Part shown: in pieces, positions 1 through 8,748 of the stretch
How the letters are laid out: each line of letters begins with the position of its first letter
How positions within the stretch are numbered: position 1 is the stretch's first letter
Source of the DNA: an uncultured Candidatus Saccharibacteria bacterium
GTDB lineage: Bacteria; Patescibacteriota; CPR2; UBA1875; CAIMLA01
DNA length: 64,000 bases
Assembly (NCBI GenBank): GCA_964501135.1
Contig: CAZCRI010000005.1
Coordinates: forward strand, 14,771 to 78,770
Direction of reading: 5' to 3'
Notes under the pieces: model-generated
What the model was told of the DNA's origin: nothing
Seen by the model: the letters and a program-made list of their open reading frames with translations, nothing else
Database searches by the model: none
Translations under genes and position numbers: made by a program

Positions 1-1
1 A

Positions 2-1171
2 AAAATCGATGAGGGCGAGCGTCTCTTTGAACAACTGGTCCTAGGGCGTCCCTACGAAGATGCGCCTTTTATTACCGCTCGAATCTGTGGCGTCTGCCCT
101 ACCGCTCACGTGCTGGTGGCAATCCAAGCAATCGAGGACGCCTTTGGGGTCACCGTAAACGAGAGGATTATGAGCTTGCGTCGCGCCTTACAAGCAGGGC
201 AGATTATTCAATCTCACGCTCTTCACCTCTTTTTTCTTGCTGCTCCCGACTACCTGGATGTCGTAAATGCCATCGAGCTTCATCACACTAGACCCGAGCT
301 TTACCGCACCGCCGTGGCAATGAAGAAATTGGGCGACAAACTGGTAGAGGTTATTGGAGGTCGAGCAATTCACCCGGTAGCCCCAGCGGTGGGTGGATTT
401 CTAAGCGTCCCCGGAAACGAAGTACTAAAGGAGCTGGTGACTGAGCTAAGAGCCGCTATTCCTATGGCGCTAGAGACGGTAGAACTCTTTGCCTCCTTTG
501 ACTACCCGGCGCTAAAGCGTAAGACCGAGTACCTTGCTACTCAGAAAGATGGCAAACTCACTTACCTCGACGGGGACAGCATCGTCTCAAACTCCAAGTT
601 CAAGGCAACAATTGAGAACTATGGCTATGCATTTACAGAAGAAGTGCGTAAAGACTCCAACACAAAGTATGGTACTCGAGACGGTCACGGCTTTATGGTT
701 GGAGCCCTCGCCCGTCTTTCGCTGGACCAGGAGAACCTCAATCCAAAAGCACTCTACGCCCTACGCAGTATTTGGGGCCAGAAATTACCTTCGTACAATA
801 GTTTCCATAACAATGTTGCTCAAGCAATTGAGATCGTACACCTTATCGAGGAAGCTATAATCCAGCTCGAATCAGCAATCGCAAACTCCAAGGAGCTTGC
901 CCGGGTACCATTTACTGTTCGTGAAGGTGCTGGAGTTGGGGCCATAGAAGCGCCTCGCGGCACCCTGTACCACTCGGTAAAAACGGATAAAAACGGAATT
1001 ATCACAGATTACGACATCGTTACACCTACCGTTCAGAGTCTCGTAAACCTCGAGGAAGATGCCGACGAAATGATGAAGAAATACGGCAAACTACCAGAAA
1101 AAGAACTATATCGACAAATCGAAATGCTAATCCGCGCCTACGACCCCTGCATCACCTGTTCGGTACATTAA
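2..1171 (+). CDS. [NiFe]-hydrogenase large (catalytic) subunit, 5'-truncated at window edge; probably a cytoplasmic group 3 enzyme
   Basis: Frame continuous from nt 2: KIDEGERLFEQLVLGRPYEDAPFITARICGVCPTAH (N-terminal RxCGxCxxxH Ni-ligand motif). ORF ends ...AYDPCITCSVH (C-terminal DPCxxCxxH motif). No start codon before window edge. Confidence 0.85.
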   Translation, partial: KIDEGERLFEQLVLGRPYEDAPFITARICGVCPTAHVLVAIQAIEDAFGVTVNERIMSLRRALQAGQIIQSHALHLFFLAAPDYLDVVNAIELHHTRPELYRTAVAMKKLGDKLVEVIGGRAIHPVAPAVGGFLSVPGNEVLKELVTELRAAIPMALETVELFASFDYPALKRKTEYLATQKDGKLTYLDGDSIVSNSKFKATIENYGYAFTEEVRKDSNTKYGTRDGHGFMVGALARLSLDQENLNPKALYALRSIWGQKLPSYNSFHNNVAQAIEIVHLIEEAIIQLESAIANSKELARVPFTVREGAGVGAIEAPRGTLYHSVKTDKNGIITDYDIVTPTVQSLVNLEEDADEMMKKYGKLPEKELYRQIEMLIRAYDPCITCSVH

Positions 1172-1183
1172 ACTAATTCAAAA

Positions 1184-1214
1184 GACCCTCCTACTGGAGG
1201 GTCTACTATTTTTG
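1184..1214. terminator. Rho-independent terminator (bidirectional hairpin) after hydrogenase large subunit
   Basis: gaccctcc-tact-ggagggtc perfect 8-bp GC-rich hairpin followed by tactatttttgtg. Confidence 0.7.
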
Positions 1215-1232
1215 TGCGGGCTGGCTCCCCAG

Positions 1233-1442
1233 TTAATGGAGAGCCAGCTCGTGATAAGCGCCGTGAAGCAGCCCGTAGAGGGTAATGACCAAGGATATGA
1301 CCAAAACCGACATTGGGGCCAGCATCAGCAAGCGCTGATACCACGTTTTGTGTGCTTGGCAATAATCCCAGACACACATCCCCAGGGCGAGTAGCCCTGA
1401 GAGGACGATGGCGGACATGCACAACTCAAGCGCTGTAGGCAT
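1233..1442 (-). CDS. small hypothetical 2-TM membrane protein (~69 aa from internal Met MPTALELCMSAIVLSGLLALGMCVW...)
   Basis: ORF 1233..1511(-); two hydrophobic helices; AAGGG Shine-Dalgarno-like 7 nt upstream of the internal ATG; ends at the shared terminator hairpin. Confidence 0.3.
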   Translation of the reverse strand: MPTALELCMSAIVLSGLLALGMCVWDYCQAHKTWYQRLLMLAPMSVLVISLVITLYGLLHGAYHELALH

Positions 1443-2058
1443 TGTCTTACCCTTCACTAGAATGAATTGGGGACTTGAGCTAGTACTTCTTCTTGGTTTT
1501 GTAAGCCGCAAAGAAGACCGACGCCCAACCGAGGGCGAAAAGCACCTTATCCATTTCTACACCTCCTGGTATCTAGTGAGCTTGACGTGATGTCGTCTGT
1601 GGTGCGTCATCACTGGTTTCCCAACTTTGACACAAAAGGGGTGCGCTCGGATAGCTGGAGTACAAAACTCCTTGGCTTATCCCCCATGGCTAGCCCTTGC
1701 TGGACTAGGAGCGCGTTTGCCTCACGTCAGAGGTATGGTCGATATAAGAGACCTTGGGGCCAATACATCTACGGTTAGGCCGCTAATCCGACAGTTTTCA
1801 GCCTTGACCCGTAGGCCCTGGGCGCGTTACCACTGTCAAACGCTCCGGAGTAAGGGCTCCGGTGGACCCTGTACGCCCAAGCGCACTGACCCGACAAATG
1901 TCGGGCAATGGACGTCATCACTGGTATTTCCAGATTTGACGCATAATACCCTTTCGTCCTACACATGGACTCATCAGCGCAGCAAGGTAGCTGCGGAGGG
2001 GCGAGACAATCCCCCTGGAACTGTCCCGCAAAAAAGCGCGGGTTGAGAGCGGAGCTGC

Positions 2059-2276
2059 TCAGTAGCAGATAAGCTCATCAATTTGGTCGTAATCGTTTCG
2101 GTGTGACCCTACTTCGATTCCATCCGCCTTGAGAACCCTCTCCAACTCTCCCGTGGGACCATAGTCCACGGCGCGAACCTTGATCGCGTGGCGACCCGTT
2201 TGGAAACGGATCTCTGCGAGGAGGGCTTCTGCCGCGAGCGCTTTTAGGATGCGCTCCACCCGGAGTAGATGCTCCA
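2059..2276 (-). CDS. hypothetical 72-aa protein (MEHLLRVERILKALAAEALL...), second gene of a 2-gene GC-rich cassette
   Basis: ATG 6 nt downstream of the stop of the 148-aa ORF (tightly coupled); no recognisable motifs. Confidence 0.4.
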
Positions 2277-2282
2277 TGACTA

Positions 2283-2729
2283 TCACCCCCTTCCCGAGGT
2301 AATATAACGGGCAATGAATACCTGGCGAAAATCTTCTTCTCCTTCGCGCGCATCCTTCCCGAGATTTGCGGCAACGAAGTGCGAATTGCGCGGATACCGG
2401 CCAAGAGCTTCGTCGATATACGAGTCCCATCTCTGCAGTACCACACGGCGCCCACCACGTGCAGAAGTAAAGCTGGCGTTGACTTGGAAGACAGATCCGT
2501 CTTCGTAGATTACTTCTCCACGAATCTTGATCGGCGCGATGAGAGTCGCCTCCATCGCCTTAACGACAGCATCGGCTTCGGATGAAGTCAGATGCTCTGT
2601 CATCACGAAAATCTCGCGTGAGCCCGGATCGCCATCACCCACCAGTCCCTCCGGGTCAATGACTCCTTCGGAGCCCAAAATACCGATGAACTGATGCGCA
2701 AACTTGCTAACCAGATACCTCTGATGCAT
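2283..2729 (-). CDS. hypothetical 148-aa protein (MHQRYLVSKFAHQFIGILGSEG...), first gene of a 2-gene cassette
   Basis: Clean ORF in ~55% GC DNA, preceded by AT-rich promoter region 2730-2950; no family recognised. Confidence 0.45.
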   Translation of the reverse strand: MHQRYLVSKFAHQFIGILGSEGVIDPEGLVGDGDPGSREIFVMTEHLTSSEADAVVKAMEATLIAPIKIRGEVIYEDGSVFQVNASFTSARGGRRVVLQRWDSYIDEALGRYPRNSHFVAANLGKDAREGEEDFRQVFIARYITSGRG

Positions 2730-2871
2730 GATAGCCTCCTAGGCTAGGTTGGTTGTAATGTACCTCGACTCAGTATTTCTGTTTCCCAAGTCGACTGTGT
2801 ATTGTAAACTCTTACCTTACCTTTGTCAATATAATCCTTGCTTTATTTCCATACTTGGTTTATACTATACT

Positions 2872-2916
2872 TTGTAAATCTATTCTGGTTTGTAAATCTT
2901 AATTTTACAATTTAAC
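2872..2916. promoter_or_regulatory. Candidate operator in divergent promoter region: direct repeat TTTGTAAATCT (x2) and inverted repeat TTGTAAA-N7-TTTACAA
   Basis: ctttgtaaatctattctggtttgtaaatcttaattttacaa lies between the divergently transcribed 148-aa gene and the TrmB-family regulator. Confidence 0.35.
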
Positions 2917-2955
2917 AGATGTGTATAACAACTTCTAACCCCATCGGGAGACTCT

Positions 2956-3699
2956 ATGAAACAAAATTTATTAGAAAAATTGGGCCTAAATGAGAATGAG
3001 GCCATTGTTTACAATCTTCTCCTTTCAGAGGGACCGAAGACACCTCCTGAGGTTGCCACAGCGACCGGCATCACTCGGGCAAACTCCTATTTTGTCTTGC
3101 AATCTCTCATGGGAATGAAGCTAGTAGAGCGCAAGGAGCGCAAAAAGAAATTTCTTTATTCTCCCCTTGACCCACATACTCTTGGGGATATTATCGGAAA
3201 AGAGAAAAGGGAAATCTCAGAAAAAGAGCAAGTACTTCAAGCTGTATTGCCAGAGCTCTCCAGTCTTTTCAATCTGCAAAGTAATAAGCCGAGCGTTTCC
3301 TATTTCGAAGGGATTGCTGGAGTAAAAACCCTATATAACGACTCCCTTCTCCAGAAACCTGGAGAAGTCCTGGTGTTTCGTTCCCCACTAGACGATGACT
3401 ATCTCACAAAGGAATTTGCGGAAAAACAATCTCTAAAGATGAAATCTCTAGGCATTAAACTTCGTATGATTAGTCCGGAGACAAAACCCGGAGTCTTCAC
3501 CACCGTTAATGGCGAGGAAATGCTGCGTGAGATACGTTACATCAAAAAGCACTTATTTGAGTCTGAGATATCGATTTACAATAACCGTGTAGCGATCGTA
3601 ACTTACGGTAAAACGAAGGTAAGTATGCTCGTAGAGAACAAGGAGCTGACAAATACTCTACGTAGTATCTTTGAGCTGCTTTGGTCTACACTAAAATAA
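2956..3699 (+). CDS. TrmB-family transcriptional regulator (N-terminal winged HTH, C-terminal sensor domain)
   Basis: N-terminus LGLNENEAIVYNLLLSEGPKTPPEVATATGITRANSYFVLQSLMGMKLVER matches the TrmB/archaeal-type sugar-regulator wHTH; 247 aa. Confidence 0.7.
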   Translation: MKQNLLEKLGLNENEAIVYNLLLSEGPKTPPEVATATGITRANSYFVLQSLMGMKLVERKERKKKFLYSPLDPHTLGDIIGKEKREISEKEQVLQAVLPELSSLFNLQSNKPSVSYFEGIAGVKTLYNDSLLQKPGEVLVFRSPLDDDYLTKEFAEKQSLKMKSLGIKLRMISPETKPGVFTTVNGEEMLREIRYIKKHLFESEISIYNNRVAIVTYGKTKVSMLVENKELTNTLRSIFELLWSTLK

Positions 3700-3743
3700 T
3701 TATCTAAGACGGCTAAGGCCGGCGCTCCGGATGGAGCGCCGGC

Positions 3744-4394
3744 CTACAAGCCCAGTGCCTCTTTCGCCGCCACGGTTGCTTTCTGCAACCTTGGCGTCTT
3801 GTTGTAGTCGAGTAGGGTGACTCCCACCACGTTCTCTGGAATCCCACATGCGGCTTGCGCCGCCAAGACTCGTGCTGACAGCCCCCCGTCGGGAAGCCAC
3901 ACTAGTCCCGCAAGATGCGCGTAAGGGCTTCCATTCGATGGACCGAACTGTACCAGTCCCCGAATCTCCACGTTCGCTACGCCGTTGTCGTAGTAGTAAC
4001 GACCGCCCACTACTGTCAACGGCAGCAGAGTGTGCGCAAAAGCACGAAGTTCCTCGGGTATCTCTCTGCCCACAATGGTAGGTACTGTCTGAAACTTGCG
4101 AAAGTGCTCCGCACCAGAGAAGTGCAGGATCACGCTAGCAAGGTCCACCTTGCCGGTCGTCTGCTTTGCAGTCTCTGCAATCTCCTCGATAGGACGCAGC
4201 TCACGAACCGGAAGCTCGGCCTCTTTCTCGGTAAGACATCTTCCGAATGGCCCGAGAGCGTCGACAAAGTCCTCTGATGTGTTGCACTTCAGATACTCTG
4301 CCGCCTTCACCATCACGATGTTATCGGTACCGCCGCAGGTAGGAAGCAGATGGACGAGTCCATATCTGCCACCCTTGGTTATTTCCAGGTTCAT
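3744..4394 (-). CDS. hypothetical protein immediately downstream of hypC (position where hypD is usually found, but lacks HypD CGxH/GPGCPVC/CPVC motifs)
   Basis: 216-aa ORF, 12-nt gap after hypC, ~58% GC; sequence MNLEITKGGRYGLVHLLPTCGGTDN...; no diagnostic motif. Confidence 0.45.
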   Translation of the reverse strand: MNLEITKGGRYGLVHLLPTCGGTDNIVMVKAAEYLKCNTSEDFVDALGPFGRCLTEKEAELPVRELRPIEEIAETAKQTTGKVDLASVILHFSGAEHFRKFQTVPTIVGREIPEELRAFAHTLLPLTVVGGRYYYDNGVANVEIRGLVQFGPSNGSPYAHLAGLVWLPDGGLSARVLAAQAACGIPENVVGVTLLDYNKTPRLQKATVAAKEALGL

Positions 4395-4405
4395 GCGCTC
4401 ACCTC

Positions 4406-4624
4406 CTAGTGACTACTGTTGGCCTGGGAAATCAATTGTAGTATTTCTTCTGCGTCTTTACTAGGGATTCTGCTCACCGCAAGTTCACCATGGGCAAGAA
4501 TCCAGTCCCCAACCTGGGGATTGTCTATCAGCGAAAGCTCTACTTTATACTCTTTTCCGCCGTGAACGACATATCCATAGTCACCTTCGACGCGAATCAT
4601 TTGCATTGGTGTTGCGAGACACAT
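4406..4624 (-). CDS. hypC: [NiFe]-hydrogenase maturation chaperone HypC/HupF
   Basis: 72 aa beginning MCLATPMQMIRVEG (canonical MC[LI][AG][IV]P N-terminus with essential Cys2), typical size. Confidence 0.8.
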   Translation of the reverse strand: MCLATPMQMIRVEGDYGYVVHGGKEYKVELSLIDNPQVGDWILAHGELAVSRIPSKDAEEILQLISQANSSH

Positions 4625-4679
4625 AGTTACCTACTTTCGACAGCCACTCTCTGTTGGCTTTAATATCTGAATTAAATTC

Positions 4680-5096
4680 TTAAGCTACAGCTCTGTTTTG
4701 CTGTGCTTCAATGTATTGCCTTGCCTTTTCGACATCTATCGCATAAACCAAGGTTCTCCCGTCTTCTAGAATTCGATAAACAGTCGTAGGACGTACAACG
4801 CGTAGGCCAGGCTCCCCGCCATAAACCGGCATTGCCACCTTGATTGCTGCTTCTTCTGAGACTTCTATATTCCCACCAAGATAAATCAAATTATCTCCAG
4901 CTACTAATATCGTATTTTCTGGATCCATCTCCATCAGATGTTGAACCTCTAGTACGTTTGGCTTCTCCCCTACACCGTATTCGACATGGTAGTTCTGGGC
5001 AGTCTTTTCCGAAGACATTTGCCCGCTATTGTAGCCGCGCCACTCGTTTCGTGGCTGCTGCTCCTTCTCTGGTTGTGGATTATATCCTTCTATCAT
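4680..5096 (-). CDS. hypothetical protein (138 aa)
   Basis: ORF only; no motif recognised. Confidence 0.35.
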   Translation of the reverse strand: MIEGYNPQPEKEQQPRNEWRGYNSGQMSSEKTAQNYHVEYGVGEKPNVLEVQHLMEMDPENTILVAGDNLIYLGGNIEVSEEAAIKVAMPVYGGEPGLRVVRPTTVYRILEDGRTLVYAIDVEKARQYIEAQQNRAVA

Positions 5097-5126
5097 AGTC
5101 TGATTTTACCACAAAATGAGGCGAAA

Positions 5127-5483
5127 TTAGCGAAACATCATATAGCCAACGAATACCGTACCACTCGTGATGGCACTAATAGAATTTACGATCGTTAGCG
5201 GCTTATCTTTGTAGAAAAACCCGTATACGGCCCAGCAAATAGAAACTATTGAGTACCCTGCCCAAGTGATTGGAGAAAGGCCTGCCACTGCTTTTGTCGT
5301 AAAGATGTGAAATATCTGGACACTTGTCATCACGGGACCAAATGTCCCTATAGTTGCCATCGCCCTATCAATTTTCTTTACCGAGTTCTTGTTTTGTCTA
5401 TGCTTCGCAAAATATTTGTCATGTACCGCGGTCATCAATTTTCTTAGCCTAGTCAAAACTTTTCTCCTCATTGGCACACGCAA
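5127..5483 (-). CDS. small 3-TM membrane protein, SemiSWEET/PQ-loop-like
   Basis: ~100-aa hydrophobic core with a Pro...Gln motif in the first helix (GPVMTSVQIFHIF), three predicted TM helices. Confidence 0.4.
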   Translation of the reverse strand: MRVPMRRKVLTRLRKLMTAVHDKYFAKHRQNKNSVKKIDRAMATIGTFGPVMTSVQIFHIFTTKAVAGLSPITWAGYSIVSICWAVYGFFYKDKPLTIVNSISAITSGTVFVGYMMFR

Positions 5484-5598
5484 AAATATGTGTCTGCCCA
5501 GTTATAAAATAAAGTAATTATTGCCCGACTAACCCAACAAGACTCCCGCCGAACGCTTTTCGTAAACTATTTTAGCACTACTTGCCAGCAGTTTCAAA

Positions 5599-6159
5599 TT
5601 ACAGAGAAGCTAAGGCCTTTTGTATTCCTAGATATCCAGCTTCGGCATCCTTGACACATTCCGGGAAAGTAAGGACTGCCTTTTTCTGTTCAAATTTTCT
5701 TTGTACGTAGGCGATAAACTGCTCTTTACTATAGCCACGCGAAAGCAAATCTTCATAATAGAGCCTTAGTTTGTCCCAAGTAATAAATTTGTAGCATTCA
5801 GCATTTTTCATAACCTCGGCTGCCAAAGTTTCTGCTTTCCCTGACTTATGATGATCTCGAATCGACTGCAATATCTCTGTGCTTTTATCCCTTGGGCATC
5901 CCCATTGTTCTAGATAGTTCTCAGCCATACTAGCGCTAAGTTCTGGGTGGTTTTTTTGAACTTCACCACCTACCTCTTTATCAAAGCAAATATGTGCTAG
6001 GTAAAGTGCAACCACTACTGTTTCGGCATCTACCCCGTACTTTTTGGACAATTCCCTTCCTTTTGCTACAGCTGTTTCCGTAAGCTCCCAAACCGGCGCT
6101 CCATTTTCCAATGTCTTTTGATACATCAAGACACGTGCATTTTCTATTAAATCCGTCAT
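5599..6159 (-). CDS. hypothetical protein (187 aa from MTDLIENARV...)
   Basis: ORF 5599..6219; internal Met at 6159 chosen to avoid overlap with the upstream gene. Confidence 0.35.
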   Translation of the reverse strand: MTDLIENARVLMYQKTLENGAPVWELTETAVAKGRELSKKYGVDAETVVVALYLAHICFDKEVGGEVQKNHPELSASMAENYLEQWGCPRDKSTEILQSIRDHHKSGKAETLAAEVMKNAECYKFITWDKLRLYYEDLLSRGYSKEQFIAYVQRKFEQKKAVLTFPECVKDAEAGYLGIQKALASL

Positions 6160-6160
6160 C

Positions 6161-6628
6161 TTAGTAACCCTTCGGCGGTTTAGTTTTCTTATCTGGCTTT
6201 TGAAGATCAAGGGCCGCAAGTTGCCTCATAATCTCACTTACTTCTAGCGATACGGTTTGTGGATGTAACCCCTTGGCCTCTAGAATCATATTTACCTCTA
6301 CAATAGTTTTCTCAAAATCATTCTTATTCTTCTGATTAATGTCCTTCCAGGCGATACCAGCTAGAGCCTCGGCTGTTTCGTTATGGTAAGACAAGATACC
6401 TTTGGCAAAAAGGAGGGCAATCGCTGGATACCCCAAGTAACCGGCAAAGAAAGAGGCATTGTCATTGGCATATATCTGTCTGGTTTCCGGGTTGTATGAA
6501 ATCGTGTAGTACTTGCCACGCGACGATGAATAGAGCTTCGCACTGTCTCCATCAACTTTAATTCGGTCATCGCCAATAGCCCCAAGGGCCTCGTATACCT
6601 TAATTGTTGGTGGCATCGTCCATTTCAT
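6161..6628 (-). CDS. hypothetical protein (156 aa from MKWTMPPTIKVYEALGA...)
   Basis: Six-frame ORF extends to 6790, but that part overlaps the tRNA exon and group I intron core; internal Met at 6628 chosen. Confidence 0.35.
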   Translation of the reverse strand: MKWTMPPTIKVYEALGAIGDDRIKVDGDSAKLYSSSRGKYYTISYNPETRQIYANDNASFFAGYLGYPAIALLFAKGILSYHNETAEALAGIAWKDINQKNKNDFEKTIVEVNMILEAKGLHPQTVSLEVSEIMRQLAALDLQKPDKKTKPPKGY

Positions 6629-6633
6629 AGATA

Positions 6634-6664
6634 TATTATAGCTCAAAAAATAAAAAGAGCCGCA
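6634..6664 (-). terminator. Rho-independent terminator downstream of tRNA-Ile exon 2
   Basis: Minus strand: AGAGCCGCgttGCGGCTCT hairpin followed by TTTTTATTTTTT. Confidence 0.7.
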
Positions 6665-6728
6665 ACGCGGCTCTAATTTCCAATTTGGTGGGCCTGGCTG
6701 GACTTGAACCAGCGACCAATCGGTTATG

Positions 6729-7336
6729 CGTACCACTACAGCTTTCACTGCCCCTTTCGGGTTTGTAATCTGGACTATCCCTTCTTCCACGTGGGAAGTC
6801 TGCCAACTAGTCTCTACACCTTCCCCGACGATGCTGTCGGGACTTGGCTCGGGATTGCCATGACGTTTTCACGCTTTAGGTTTCCCCGAATTTGACAGAA
6901 TATACTAATGGATCGCTCCACTAGCAGCCCTTTGACTACTTGGCCTATCTAGAGTATTATCGGATTATGAAGGACTTCATAAACTGCAAGGTCTGCGGCA
7001 AACAACTATCGGGACGCCAACTGATGTTCTGTTCTGGCAAGTGCAAGAACAAAGTACATCAGTCTTATGGTGCCCAAAAGGAACGCGCCCTAGAGAGAAA
7101 GCTTTACTTTATCCGTTTGCTCGGCGGCAAATGCCAGGAGTGCGGATATAGCGAGAACCTAGCAGCCCTTTCCTTCCACCACAAAAGCGGTAAGGAATAT
7201 AAGCTGGATTCAAGATCGCTTTCCAATAGGGGTTTGCAGACAATGAGAGATGAAGTTGCCAAATGCGAGCTGCTTTGTGGCAACTGTCACATGAGACTTC
7301 ATAACCCTTCTCTGGACTTAGCCAAATTGTCAATTG
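6729..7336 (-). mobile_element. Group I self-splicing intron (608 nt) inserted between U33 and C34 of tRNA-Ile(CAU); core P3-P9 in 6729..~6900, long P1/P2 extension 6901..7336
   Basis: Intron RNA (minus strand) shows P3 UGUCAA/UUGGCA, P4 AAAUUCGGGGAAA / AAUCCCGAGCC (P/Q elements), P6 CCCGAC..GUCGGG, P7 GAGACUA / GGAUAGUCC (R/S elements), P8 CUUCC-cacgu-GGAAG, P9 CCC-gaaa-GGG. The 5' exon ends in U and the intron ends in G (GGUACG|CAUAA). Confidence 0.8.
6940..7336 (+). CDS. HNH endonuclease domain ORF (homing-endonuclease-like) encoded antisense within the intron P1/P2 extension; reads through in frame into tilS with no stop codon
   Basis: CKVCGK...FCSGKC zinc ribbon, then GGKCQECGYSENLAALSFHHKSGKEYKLDSRSL...CELLCGNCHMRLHN (CxxC...HH...N...CxxCH HNH signature). 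The ORF continues across the antisense tRNA exon 1. Confidence 0.6.
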
Positions 7337-7419
7337 AGCCGACTGCTCTAACCACTGAGCTACAGGCCCGCGAAATTGCTACGAATAGCAAGGGAATTAT
7401 AGCAAAAAAAGCACTGTCT

Positions 7420-8748
7420 GTGAAGGAATTTGGCTTTAGACTGACCACACTCGGCATCGAGAGGGAAACCAAGCTGGTTCTCGGCGTTTCTGGCGGTGTC
7501 GACTCCGTAGTGATGCTCGACCTCGTAGCGAGCTGCCTTCCAAAGCAAAACATGGTGATTGCTCACGTTAATCATGGATTCCGGGATGATTCGGACAAAG
7601 ATGAGAGATTTGTCCGTTCCTTGGCTAAGAAGTATGACATTACGTACACCTCTACAAAGCTAAAACCACACAACATGGCTTCAAACGAGTCGGGAAACCT
7701 CGAGGAATATTTTCGGGATAAAAGACGACGATTTTTACAGAATGCTGCCAAAAAATATGATGCGGGTTACGTAGCACTTGCCCACAATGCCGATGATCAG
7801 GCAGAAACAGTGCTGATGAATTTGGTCCGCGGAAGTGGTCCAGCGGGACTCTCCGGAATGAAAGAGCGCGAGGGTAAAATTCTTCGCCCCCTGCTAGGTA
7901 TTACGAAGACTGAGATTATTGCTTATGCAGAGATACACAAACTCAAATGGCACGAAGACACCACCAACACCGATACCAGCTACAACCGCAACTACCTTCG
8001 TCACCGAGTCTTACCGTTGCTTGGGCAACTCAACCCAGAGTACCTGGCAAACATTAGCCGCTCGGCAACGATTCAAGAAGAGATTGATGAATTACTAAAG
8101 GAGCGCGCCAAGTGGCTGGTAGAACAACTCCACACTAACACTTCAGTTTCTGCAGAGGTACCACGGCCAATTCTATACGAGGCCTTGGCGCAGATGTACG
8201 AAAAGGTAAAAGGTGATCGCAAGGAGCTCTCACTCGCCCATCTTGAAGCAGTCGCCCAGCTGGCAAGTGATGACCAAGGTACAAAAACCCTCGATCTACC
8301 GGGAAATGTTACAGCGAGGCGACGCTACAATCACCTTGATTTTGTGCTCAAAATGAGAGATAATAAAGCACCAATTATAGCCCCTCTTGAGCTATCTCTG
8401 GGGCACTCGAATTTTGGAAATTATAACGTAGAGATTACCGAATCTAACAGAGCCGACTCCAAGGACAAGTATTCTATTTTGCTCTCCTCCCTAGAAGGAT
8501 ACGTAATCCGCGCTGTCCTGCCAGGAGATAAAGTAGCAAAGACGGGTATGGAAGGCCATAAAAAGCTGCAAGACCTGTTCGTAGATGCTAAAATAGATAG
8601 GCAAAAACGTTCGCAAATTCCCCTTCTAGTCGGTACCACAAATAATGAAGTTCTGTGGATTCCCGGATTAGCAAAATCAAGAAACCTAGATAACAAAAAA
8701 CCGAAATATAGCATAACCATAAGCGAGGCCAGTCATGAAAACCGTTAA
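7420..8748 (+). CDS. tilS: tRNA(Ile)-lysidine synthetase TilS (likely start GTG 7420; six-frame ORF is continuous from the ATG at 6940)
   Basis: PP-loop LVLGVSGGVDSVVMLDLV (SGGxDS) about 18 aa after the candidate GTG start, total ~443 aa; conserved tilS-ftsH adjacency with 14-nt overlap. Confidence 0.8.
   Translation: MKEFGFRLTTLGIERETKLVLGVSGGVDSVVMLDLVASCLPKQNMVIAHVNHGFRDDSDKDERFVRSLAKKYDITYTSTKLKPHNMASNESGNLEEYFRDKRRRFLQNAAKKYDAGYVALAHNADDQAETVLMNLVRGSGPAGLSGMKEREGKILRPLLGITKTEIIAYAEIHKLKWHEDTTNTDTSYNRNYLRHRVLPLLGQLNPEYLANISRSATIQEEIDELLKERAKWLVEQLHTNTSVSAEVPRPILYEALAQMYEKVKGDRKELSLAHLEAVAQLASDDQGTKTLDLPGNVTARRRYNHLDFVLKMRDNKAPIIAPLELSLGHSNFGNYNVEITESNRADSKDKYSILLSSLEGYVIRAVLPGDKVAKTGMEGHKKLQDLFVDAKIDRQKRSQIPLLVGTTNNEVLWIPGLAKSRNLDNKKPKYSITISEASHENR

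Follow-up and report, generated by a model that had tools for sequence, protein, structure and literature searches.

The stretch of DNA analysed here, hereafter the window, comprises 64,000 nucleotides (nt) of contig CAZCRI010000005.1 from an uncultured Candidatus Saccharibacteria bacterium, and near its start it carries the end of a [NiFe]-hydrogenase large-subunit gene (hydA), a gene for a protein with a TrmB-type helix-turn-helix (HTH), the hydrogenase maturation gene hypC and, directly downstream of hypC on the same strand, a gene for a 216-amino-acid (aa) protein, called here the partner (Table 1). All four had been called in an earlier note made from the sequence alone, and the calls proved genuine. 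HypC and the group-3b hydrogenase cluster are already known, and what is new at this locus is the partner, a putative and so far unannotated extra component of the [NiFe] maturation module.

The hypC product matched PF01455 (E-value (E) 5.3e-17) and TIGR00074 (49.6 bits against a cut-off of 48 bits), and a profile of its subfamily recovered the solved HypC chains 2z1c, 3vyr, 2ot2 and 3d3r with an E of 7e-14. M1, C2 and H45 are invariant among the 30 aligned members of this HypC subfamily. The Shine-Dalgarno sequence GGAGGTGA is located 6 nt ahead of the ATG of the partner gene, and since the stop codon TAG of hypC overlaps it, the two genes are probably translationally coupled. The 138-aa open reading frame (ORF) upstream of hypC was observed to be kept in the nearest relatives only, namely in the related loci L010 (138 aa) and L002 (132 aa), and in L010 an additional 115-aa ORF lies between it and hypC.

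A search of 5.8 billion proteins with the partner returned 12 clusters with identities of 39–100%, none of which is named, and a profile search of 1.84 billion representatives gave 23 matches, mostly of 190–211 aa, the family as a whole ranging in length between 192 and 218 aa. The partner of the window showed no match in Pfam, NCBIfam, PADLOC or PHROG, and none of 26 family members (0/26) matched Pfam even at E-values of up to 10; searches of PDB sequences with the partner profiles gave noise only, with no HypC among the matches. The protein is rich in Gly, Ala and Pro. The GC content of its gene is 56.2%, as compared with 44% for the window and 46.6% for hypC; the earlier description of this part of the locus as GC-rich therefore holds for the partner gene and for the cassette at 1172–2730 (54.1%), and fails for hypC, which had been called GC-rich like its neighbour. 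The partner gene stands 4–12 GC points above its own locus in all ten lineages examined, which makes the high GC a family trait and not a sign of recent transfer, and a horizontal transfer inferred from the GC content was rejected on this ground.

The earlier note had placed the 216-aa protein where hypD is expected and had described it as devoid of HypD motifs. The second statement was borne out, as the HypD profile (PF01924) did not match the partner and a regex scan detected neither CGxH(x)H/E nor GPGCPVC anywhere in the window. The partner family reads C20-G-G-T, in which the His of the HypD motif CGxH is missing, whereas the solved HypD of T. kodakarensis reads VCGTHE...GPGCPVC; the CGG of the partner was considered as a relic of CGxH and rejected for the missing His and for the CGTHE of the solved protein. 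The C-terminal [4Fe-4S] cysteine set does not occur in the partner, in which a single Cys is conserved across the family. Judged by these sequence features, the partner is not HypD, and the first statement held as a description of position only. Signature motifs of HypA, HypD, HypE and HypF were found neither in six-frame translations of the 64-kb window nor in those of 294 kb of related loci, and no hyp Pfam family besides HypC turned up when window ORFs of 120 aa or longer were scanned, or in the Pfam tables precomputed for the loci; these scans covered the window and the related loci, a minority of each genome, and hypDEF could lie elsewhere.

The neighbourhoods of the partner gene were compared in 15 distinct loci, in which the identity of the partner falls as low as 23–30%, and a search of a genome collection with the partner alignment A1 yielded 2 loci. 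A consistent arrangement was observed: of the 14 loci whose upstream sequence is present, 13 have hypC directly upstream of the partner gene on the same strand, with gaps of 0–17 nt, while in the fourteenth, L023 (about 25% identity), EamA and DUF6390 genes stand between the two. On this gene order the partner forms an operon with hypC. A group-3b-type hydrogenase operon adjoins the partner in 12 of the 15 loci, either co-directional and right after the partner gene, as in L005, L006, L012, L019, L020 and L022, or convergent with it, as in the window, L002, L004/L011, L010, L023 and L024; in L015/L016 no hydrogenase lies within 8 kb of the hypC–partner pair, and the partner gene is never found within the hydBGDA string. 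As read from these neighbourhoods, the hypC–partner pair is co-inherited with the group-3b hydrogenase operon across Patescibacteria. The flanks of the loci contain chromosomal housekeeping genes, such as tilS, ftsH, murJ, lepA, hrcA-grpE-dnaK and yidC-khpB.

Further genes were observed around the pair in some relatives. In L023 the order over 3568–8010 is a Zip metal permease, two ORFs of no assigned function, hypC, the EamA transporter, DUF6390 and the partner, convergent with hydADGB, and an accessory role is possible for DUF6390 and the transporters as well. A 586-aa carbamoyltransferase (Carbam_trans_N/C) is encoded three genes upstream of hypC in L012 (3539–5299) and L013 (212–1972), in the company of DUF5989, an SGNH/GDSL hydrolase and a glycosyltransferase; the carbamoyltransferase fold is akin to that of HypF, and the group is probably a polysaccharide-modification cluster.

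The AlphaFold2 model of the partner exhibits a mean predicted local distance difference test score (pLDDT) of 92 and a predicted template modelling score (pTM) of 0.89, and the C-terminal 105 residues modelled separately reached a pLDDT of 95. As modelled, the partner is well folded and has two domains, a helical N-terminal domain (residues ~1–120) and a C-terminal domain in which a small six-stranded OB-like barrel (121–170) is followed by helices to about residue 216. A Foldseek search of the PDB with this model gave nothing at E <= 0.001, and the nearest solved structure, weakly, was HypC. Of the 26 sequences in the wide partner family, all have E111 and H160, and at least 90% keep C20, H97, H121, P113 and P125, with D84, H91 and D169 conserved besides in the core subfamily. 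The Cys/His/His/His/Glu set formed by C20, H97, E111, H121 and H160 would be expected to supply potential metal ligands.

A relation between the C-terminal domain and HypC was also considered. Profile alignment by hhalign of the partner family with HypC, both over the whole length and for the C-terminal domain, gave probabilities of 0.1–0.2 and E-values of 0.26–0.55, which are not significant; in the low-stringency alignment (E 0.26), H121 falls on Cys2 of HypC, P125 on Pro6 and G-x-x-x-A-H160 on G-D-W-x-x-A-H45. No member of the partner family matched PF01455. Homology to HypC is not claimed in view of the non-significant profile–profile scores, and the domain may be a derivative of HypC, not a demonstrated member of that family.

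The hydA frame is open from base 2 up to 1171, and its 5' part lies beyond the window start. The large subunit matched the Pfam family NiFeSe_Hases (PF00374) with an E of 4.3e-23 and contains the ligand motifs RICGVCPTAH and DPCITCSVH, as do those of 8 relatives, and the four Cys ligands are all retained in every large subunit compared. Its top NCBIfam matches were the sulfhydrogenase alpha subunits ShyA and HydA, with 250–266 bits against equivalog cut-offs of 700–880, and the label of group 3b reflects these profile matches together with the operons of relatives, in which the beta, gamma and delta genes, outside the window here, were seen. The operon of the relatives runs from two receiver-only response regulators through the Fer4_22 beta subunit, the NAD-binding gamma subunit and the small subunit to the large subunit. 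The His of DPCITC(S/A)VH is the last residue of the large subunit in the window (1144–1171) and in L002, L004, L005, L006, L010, L012, L019, L020, L023 and L024; a large subunit without a C-terminal extension leaves a maturation protease nothing to remove, hence there would be no protease checkpoint, and the sequences imply that maturation takes place without the endopeptidase step.

One or two stand-alone receiver proteins (121–127 aa, PF00072 only) open the hydrogenase operon in L005 (8703–9436), L002, L004, L006, L010, L012, L019 and L020, and no kinase or output domain was found near them. A phosphorelay joining the partner with the two receiver proteins was considered and rejected, because the receivers follow hydBGDA and the partner follows hypC when the two blocks invert or separate.

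Table 1. Features at the hydrogenase–hypC locus of the window, in order of position.
Feature	Position	Strand	Basis
Group-3b-type [NiFe]-hydrogenase large subunit hydA, C-terminal 389 codons and stop	1..1171	+	Pfam, NCBIfam, motifs
Insertion relative to L010, 2.54 kb	1174..3711 (right end approximate)	.	Alignment to L010
Bidirectional terminator-like hairpin AGACCCTCC-TACT-GGAGGGTCT, left insertion edge	1183..1204	.	Sequence
69-aa ORF, two predicted hydrophobic segments, last in the minus-strand string of the cassette	1233..1442	-	ORF list
Hammerhead type III-like ribozyme	1947..2003	-	Rfam cmscan
72-aa ORF, no family match, 5 nt after the 148-aa ORF	2059..2277	-	Family searches
148-aa ORF, divergent from the TrmB-type gene, no match	2283..2729	-	Family, phage and plasmid searches
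AT-rich divergent promoter region, 35% GC, 225 nt	2731..2955	.	Sequence
247-aa protein, N-terminal TrmB-type winged HTH	2956..3699	+	PF01978
Perfect 13-bp hairpin AGGCCGGCGCTCC-N4-GGAGCGCCGGCCT, terminator common to convergent hydA and partner in L010	3716..3745	.	L010 comparison
216-aa HypC partner, unannotated Patescibacteria-restricted family	3744..4394	-	Protein searches, AlphaFold model
hypC–partner spacer, 11 nt	4395..4405	-	Sequence
hypC, 72 aa, Cys2 and conserved His (H45, corresponding to H51 in E. coli)	4406..4624	-	PF01455, TIGR00074
138-aa ORF, no family match, 55 nt upstream of hypC, same strand	4680..5096	-	Pfam scan, relatives

Between hydA and the partner gene the locus is mosaic, as had been claimed, with a strain-specific 2.54-kb segment that includes the TrmB-type gene inserted relative to L010. 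This locus, on a 188-kb contig of GCA_041738615.1, is the closest relative found (HypC 94% identical), and it aligns with the window over 2–1173 and resumes from 3704; in it the hairpin GGCCGGCGCTCC-N4-GGAGCGCCGGCC comes immediately after the hydA stop, and beyond this hairpin the convergent partner gene ends. The segment 1174–~3711 would represent an insertion in the lineage of the window or a deletion in L010, and neither a target-site duplication nor terminal inverted repeats were seen for it. An independent 3.4-kb contig, L001 (run ERR3839025), repeats both junctions with 100% identity, which shows that the insertion is no chimeric assembly. The convergent partner/hydA junction holds other inserts elsewhere, such as a 184-aa ORF in L002 (8790–9344) and an alpha/beta hydrolase gene in L004/L011 (L004 8697–9668), and none in L010; as the inserts differ among relatives, the junction is variable and appears to be a site of recurrent insertion.

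On the minus strand the cassette is ordered as promoter-like site, 148-aa ORF, 72-aa ORF, hammerhead-like element, a non-coding stretch of some 390 nt, two small hydrophobic ORFs (the 69-aa ORF and, just upstream of it, a 24-aa mini-ORF picked out by eye) and hairpin. Apart from the TrmB-type HTH, the cassette proteins showed no match to Pfam, NCBIfam, PADLOC or PHROGs, nor did the 148-aa protein to phage and plasmid records. The hammerhead-like element scored 30.1 bits, below the Rfam gathering threshold of 48.5, with an E of 6e-5 when 191 nt were searched and of 6e-4 when 1.9 kb were; in the cmscan alignment its core (CUGAUGA, GAAA and the cleavage triplet CUC), stem I (6 bp) and stem II (4 bp) are intact, while stem III is short (about 4 bp), and it could cleave the polycistronic RNA of the cassette.

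The HTH of the 247-aa protein matched PF01978 with an E of 6.5e-16 and 58.4 bits against a cut-off of 25.6 bits over residues 6–73 only; the C-terminal 170 aa matched no family, and a sugar-binding domain was undetected. The operator-like repeat TTGTAAA-N7-TTTACAA that had been described in its promoter was confirmed at 2890–2910, and two further direct copies were added to it, so that TTGTAAA occurs at 2802, 2872 and 2890 (+) and TTTACAA at 2904. Among 5000 dinucleotide-preserving shuffles of this 225-nt region, 49 contained four copies of one 7-mer (p ~0.01), and the cluster is modestly non-random. A minus-strand promoter-like TTGACA-17-TACAAT lies at 2829–2801, its -10 element overlapped by the first copy of TTGTAAA, and copies 2–4 lie just downstream of a possible promoter of the TrmB-type gene, TTGCTT-17-TATACT, seen by eye.

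Side observations were also made further along the window, around tilS. A tRNA(CAT) gene at about 6690–7373 (-), which ARAGORN misses, is interrupted in the anticodon loop by roughly 600 nt of inserted sequence with a group I intron in it (Rfam 58.9 bits, 6748–6944); in L005, L006 and L021 the tRNA is uninterrupted, in the same place and divergent from tilS, and L002 has the interrupted form, as the window does. The 602-aa 'tilS' ORF begins within the group I intron on the opposite strand (6940–7330, +), and its first ~130 residues resemble a Zn-ribbon/HNH endonuclease (CxxC...HH...CxxCH), the TilS PP-loop following from residue 179. Its start reflects either the in-frame fusion of an antisense homing-endonuclease ORF with tilS or an ORF extended too far.

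Taken as a whole, the observations point, with a probability of about 0.65, to the partner as a lineage-specific, HypC-coupled, metal-handling accessory of [NiFe]-hydrogenase maturation. The partner would bind HypC, and its Cys/His/Glu site would hold or hand over a metal during insertion of the cofactor into the extension-less large subunit. HypC carries the iron unit on Cys2 (PMC12130793, PMC9002611), and the metal handled by the partner might be this Fe unit or might be Ni. The replacement of H121 by Q in the member P0034 and, by eye, by D in the member from L015 weighs against this assignment.

A second reading, in which the partner functionally replaces HypD, is unlikely. The pair would then be perhaps the sole dedicated Fe-site machinery, working with no [4Fe-4S] cluster, in genomes without hypD and perhaps without hypE and hypF. 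The place that the partner holds beside hypC across lineages, the HypA/D/E/F motifs missing from the window and the 294 kb, the lack of other hyp Pfam families in the scanned ORFs, and the one conserved Cys in a CGG context with conserved His residues are all consistent with it. However, hypDEF could sit in the larger part of each genome outside the scans, the CGG of the partner is without the His of CGxH, HypE and HypF would still be required for the cyanide ligands, the partner lacks both Fe-S cysteines and a Rossmann domain and would thus not perform the redox/ATPase chemistry of HypD (PMC12134894), and HypC retains the His that promotes HypD binding in E. coli (PMC9002611). A similarly doubtful variant of the replacement has a cluster-free partner, possibly a HypC duplication fused to a helical domain, supplying Cys/His ligands for the active-site iron.

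The partner might instead be a metal-free chaperone, keeping the extension-less apo-large subunit open, or an extra structural subunit staying in the enzyme, with its His and Cys residues structural or placed at an interface; this is a minor possibility. Every large subunit lacks the C-terminal extension, the OB-like barrel is a common protein-binding module, and in L023 the partner lies beside the hydrogenase with hypC two genes off, all of which would suit such a role. A structural or chaperone role fits less well with the persistence of the pair where no hydrogenase is nearby (L015) and with the absence of the gene from hydBGDA, and a conserved Cys/His/His/His/Glu set would be more usual at a metal site than at an interface.

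That the TrmB-type protein regulates the hydrogenase and hypC genes, as its position between hydA and the hypC block and its operator-like repeat might suggest, is highly improbable, and its earlier treatment as a feature of the hydrogenase locus did not hold. It is missing from all 14 related loci, it is located within the 2.54-kb insertion, the repeat cluster is confined to its own divergent promoter, with none of the 20 window copies of TTGTAAA upstream of hypC or the 138-aa ORF, and the hydrogenase operon of the relatives begins with two receiver-domain proteins instead. Because the repeats are confined to that promoter and the gene is missing in relatives, the protein most likely serves its own cassette and not the hydrogenase: through the TTGTAAA repeats it would regulate itself and the divergent 148-aa/72-aa operon. 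A search of metagenome contigs for relatives of the protein found none. Finally, the partner gene as an unrelated passenger or a recent horizontal acquisition, the other half of the choice between accessory and passenger that the earlier note had offered, is barely credible despite its 56% GC and the genuine insertion that it adjoins: the synteny with hypC down to 23–30% identity contradicts a passenger and strongly favours the accessory, the high GC characterises the family, and the chromosomal neighbours tilS, ftsH, murJ and hrcA-grpE-dnaK argue against carriage on one mobile element.

In annotation, the group-3b hydrogenases of the Candidate Phyla Radiation (CPR) are widely taken as signs of H2 and sulfur metabolism in groundwater and host-associated communities, although to our knowledge no account exists of whether or how these enzymes mature. 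Should the partner prove to be a true maturation factor, a well-studied pathway would gain a new component, and the transfer of cargo by HypC could be studied with a small, tractable protein. Should hypD truly be missing from these minimal genomes, the accepted minimal machinery would need revision, and if the HypCD scaffold has been replaced, this would mean a non-canonical route to the NiFe(CN)2CO site or a partial dependence on the host.

Comparison with known systems gives the following picture. The winged HTH of the 247-aa protein matches that of the TrmB-family regulators (PF01978), and its own promoter holds an inverted repeat; against the NCBIfam equivalogs TrmB, TrmBL1 and TrmBL2 it scored 13.6–20.3 bits, with cut-offs of 530–650 and an alignment limited to the HTH. 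The hydrogenase operon seen in the relatives of the window resembles the CPR group-3b 'hyd1' clusters of Jaffe et al. 2020 (PMC7304191), which are four-subunit group-3b-type clusters in CPR bacteria; a hypC-like family near these hydrogenases is reported there, and the section consulted describes no second conserved family paired with hypC. Searches of the available literature found no paper joining hypC with Patescibacteria, nor Saccharibacteria with hydrogenase maturation, and in the available portion of a 2025 review of [NiFe] cofactor assembly, HypA-F, HypX, HupF/HoxL and HupK/HoxV are listed, with no counterpart of the partner among them.

With respect to the maturation proteins themselves, HypC/HupF exhibit a free N-terminal Cys2 as Fe ligand, whereas in the partner the aligned position is the internal His121, with some 120 residues ahead of it. 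Maturation of [NiFe]-hydrogenases is described as depending on six universal Hyp proteins, among which HypC-HypD form the obligatory iron scaffold (PMC12134894); in this scaffold C41 of HypD and Cys2 of HypC are predicted to hold the Fe(CN)2CO iron (PMC12130793). The gene of HypD is usually found beside hypC, as the partner gene is, and the partner has one conserved Cys; in contrast, HypD comprises ~370 aa with Rossmann-like domains, CGxH, GPGCPVC and C-terminal Fe-S cysteines, and the partner, with ~200 aa, helices and a small barrel, has none of these. A further comparison is with the hydrogenase-specific chaperones and scaffolds HupK/HoxV, HycH and HyaE/HyaF, which bind HypC-type proteins or large-subunit precursors (PMC12134894). 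None of these families was matched in Pfam or NCBIfam by any member of the partner family, and HupK/HoxV resemble large subunits, which the partner does not; yet they are lineage- or isoenzyme-specific extras of hydrogenase clusters, as the partner appears to be.

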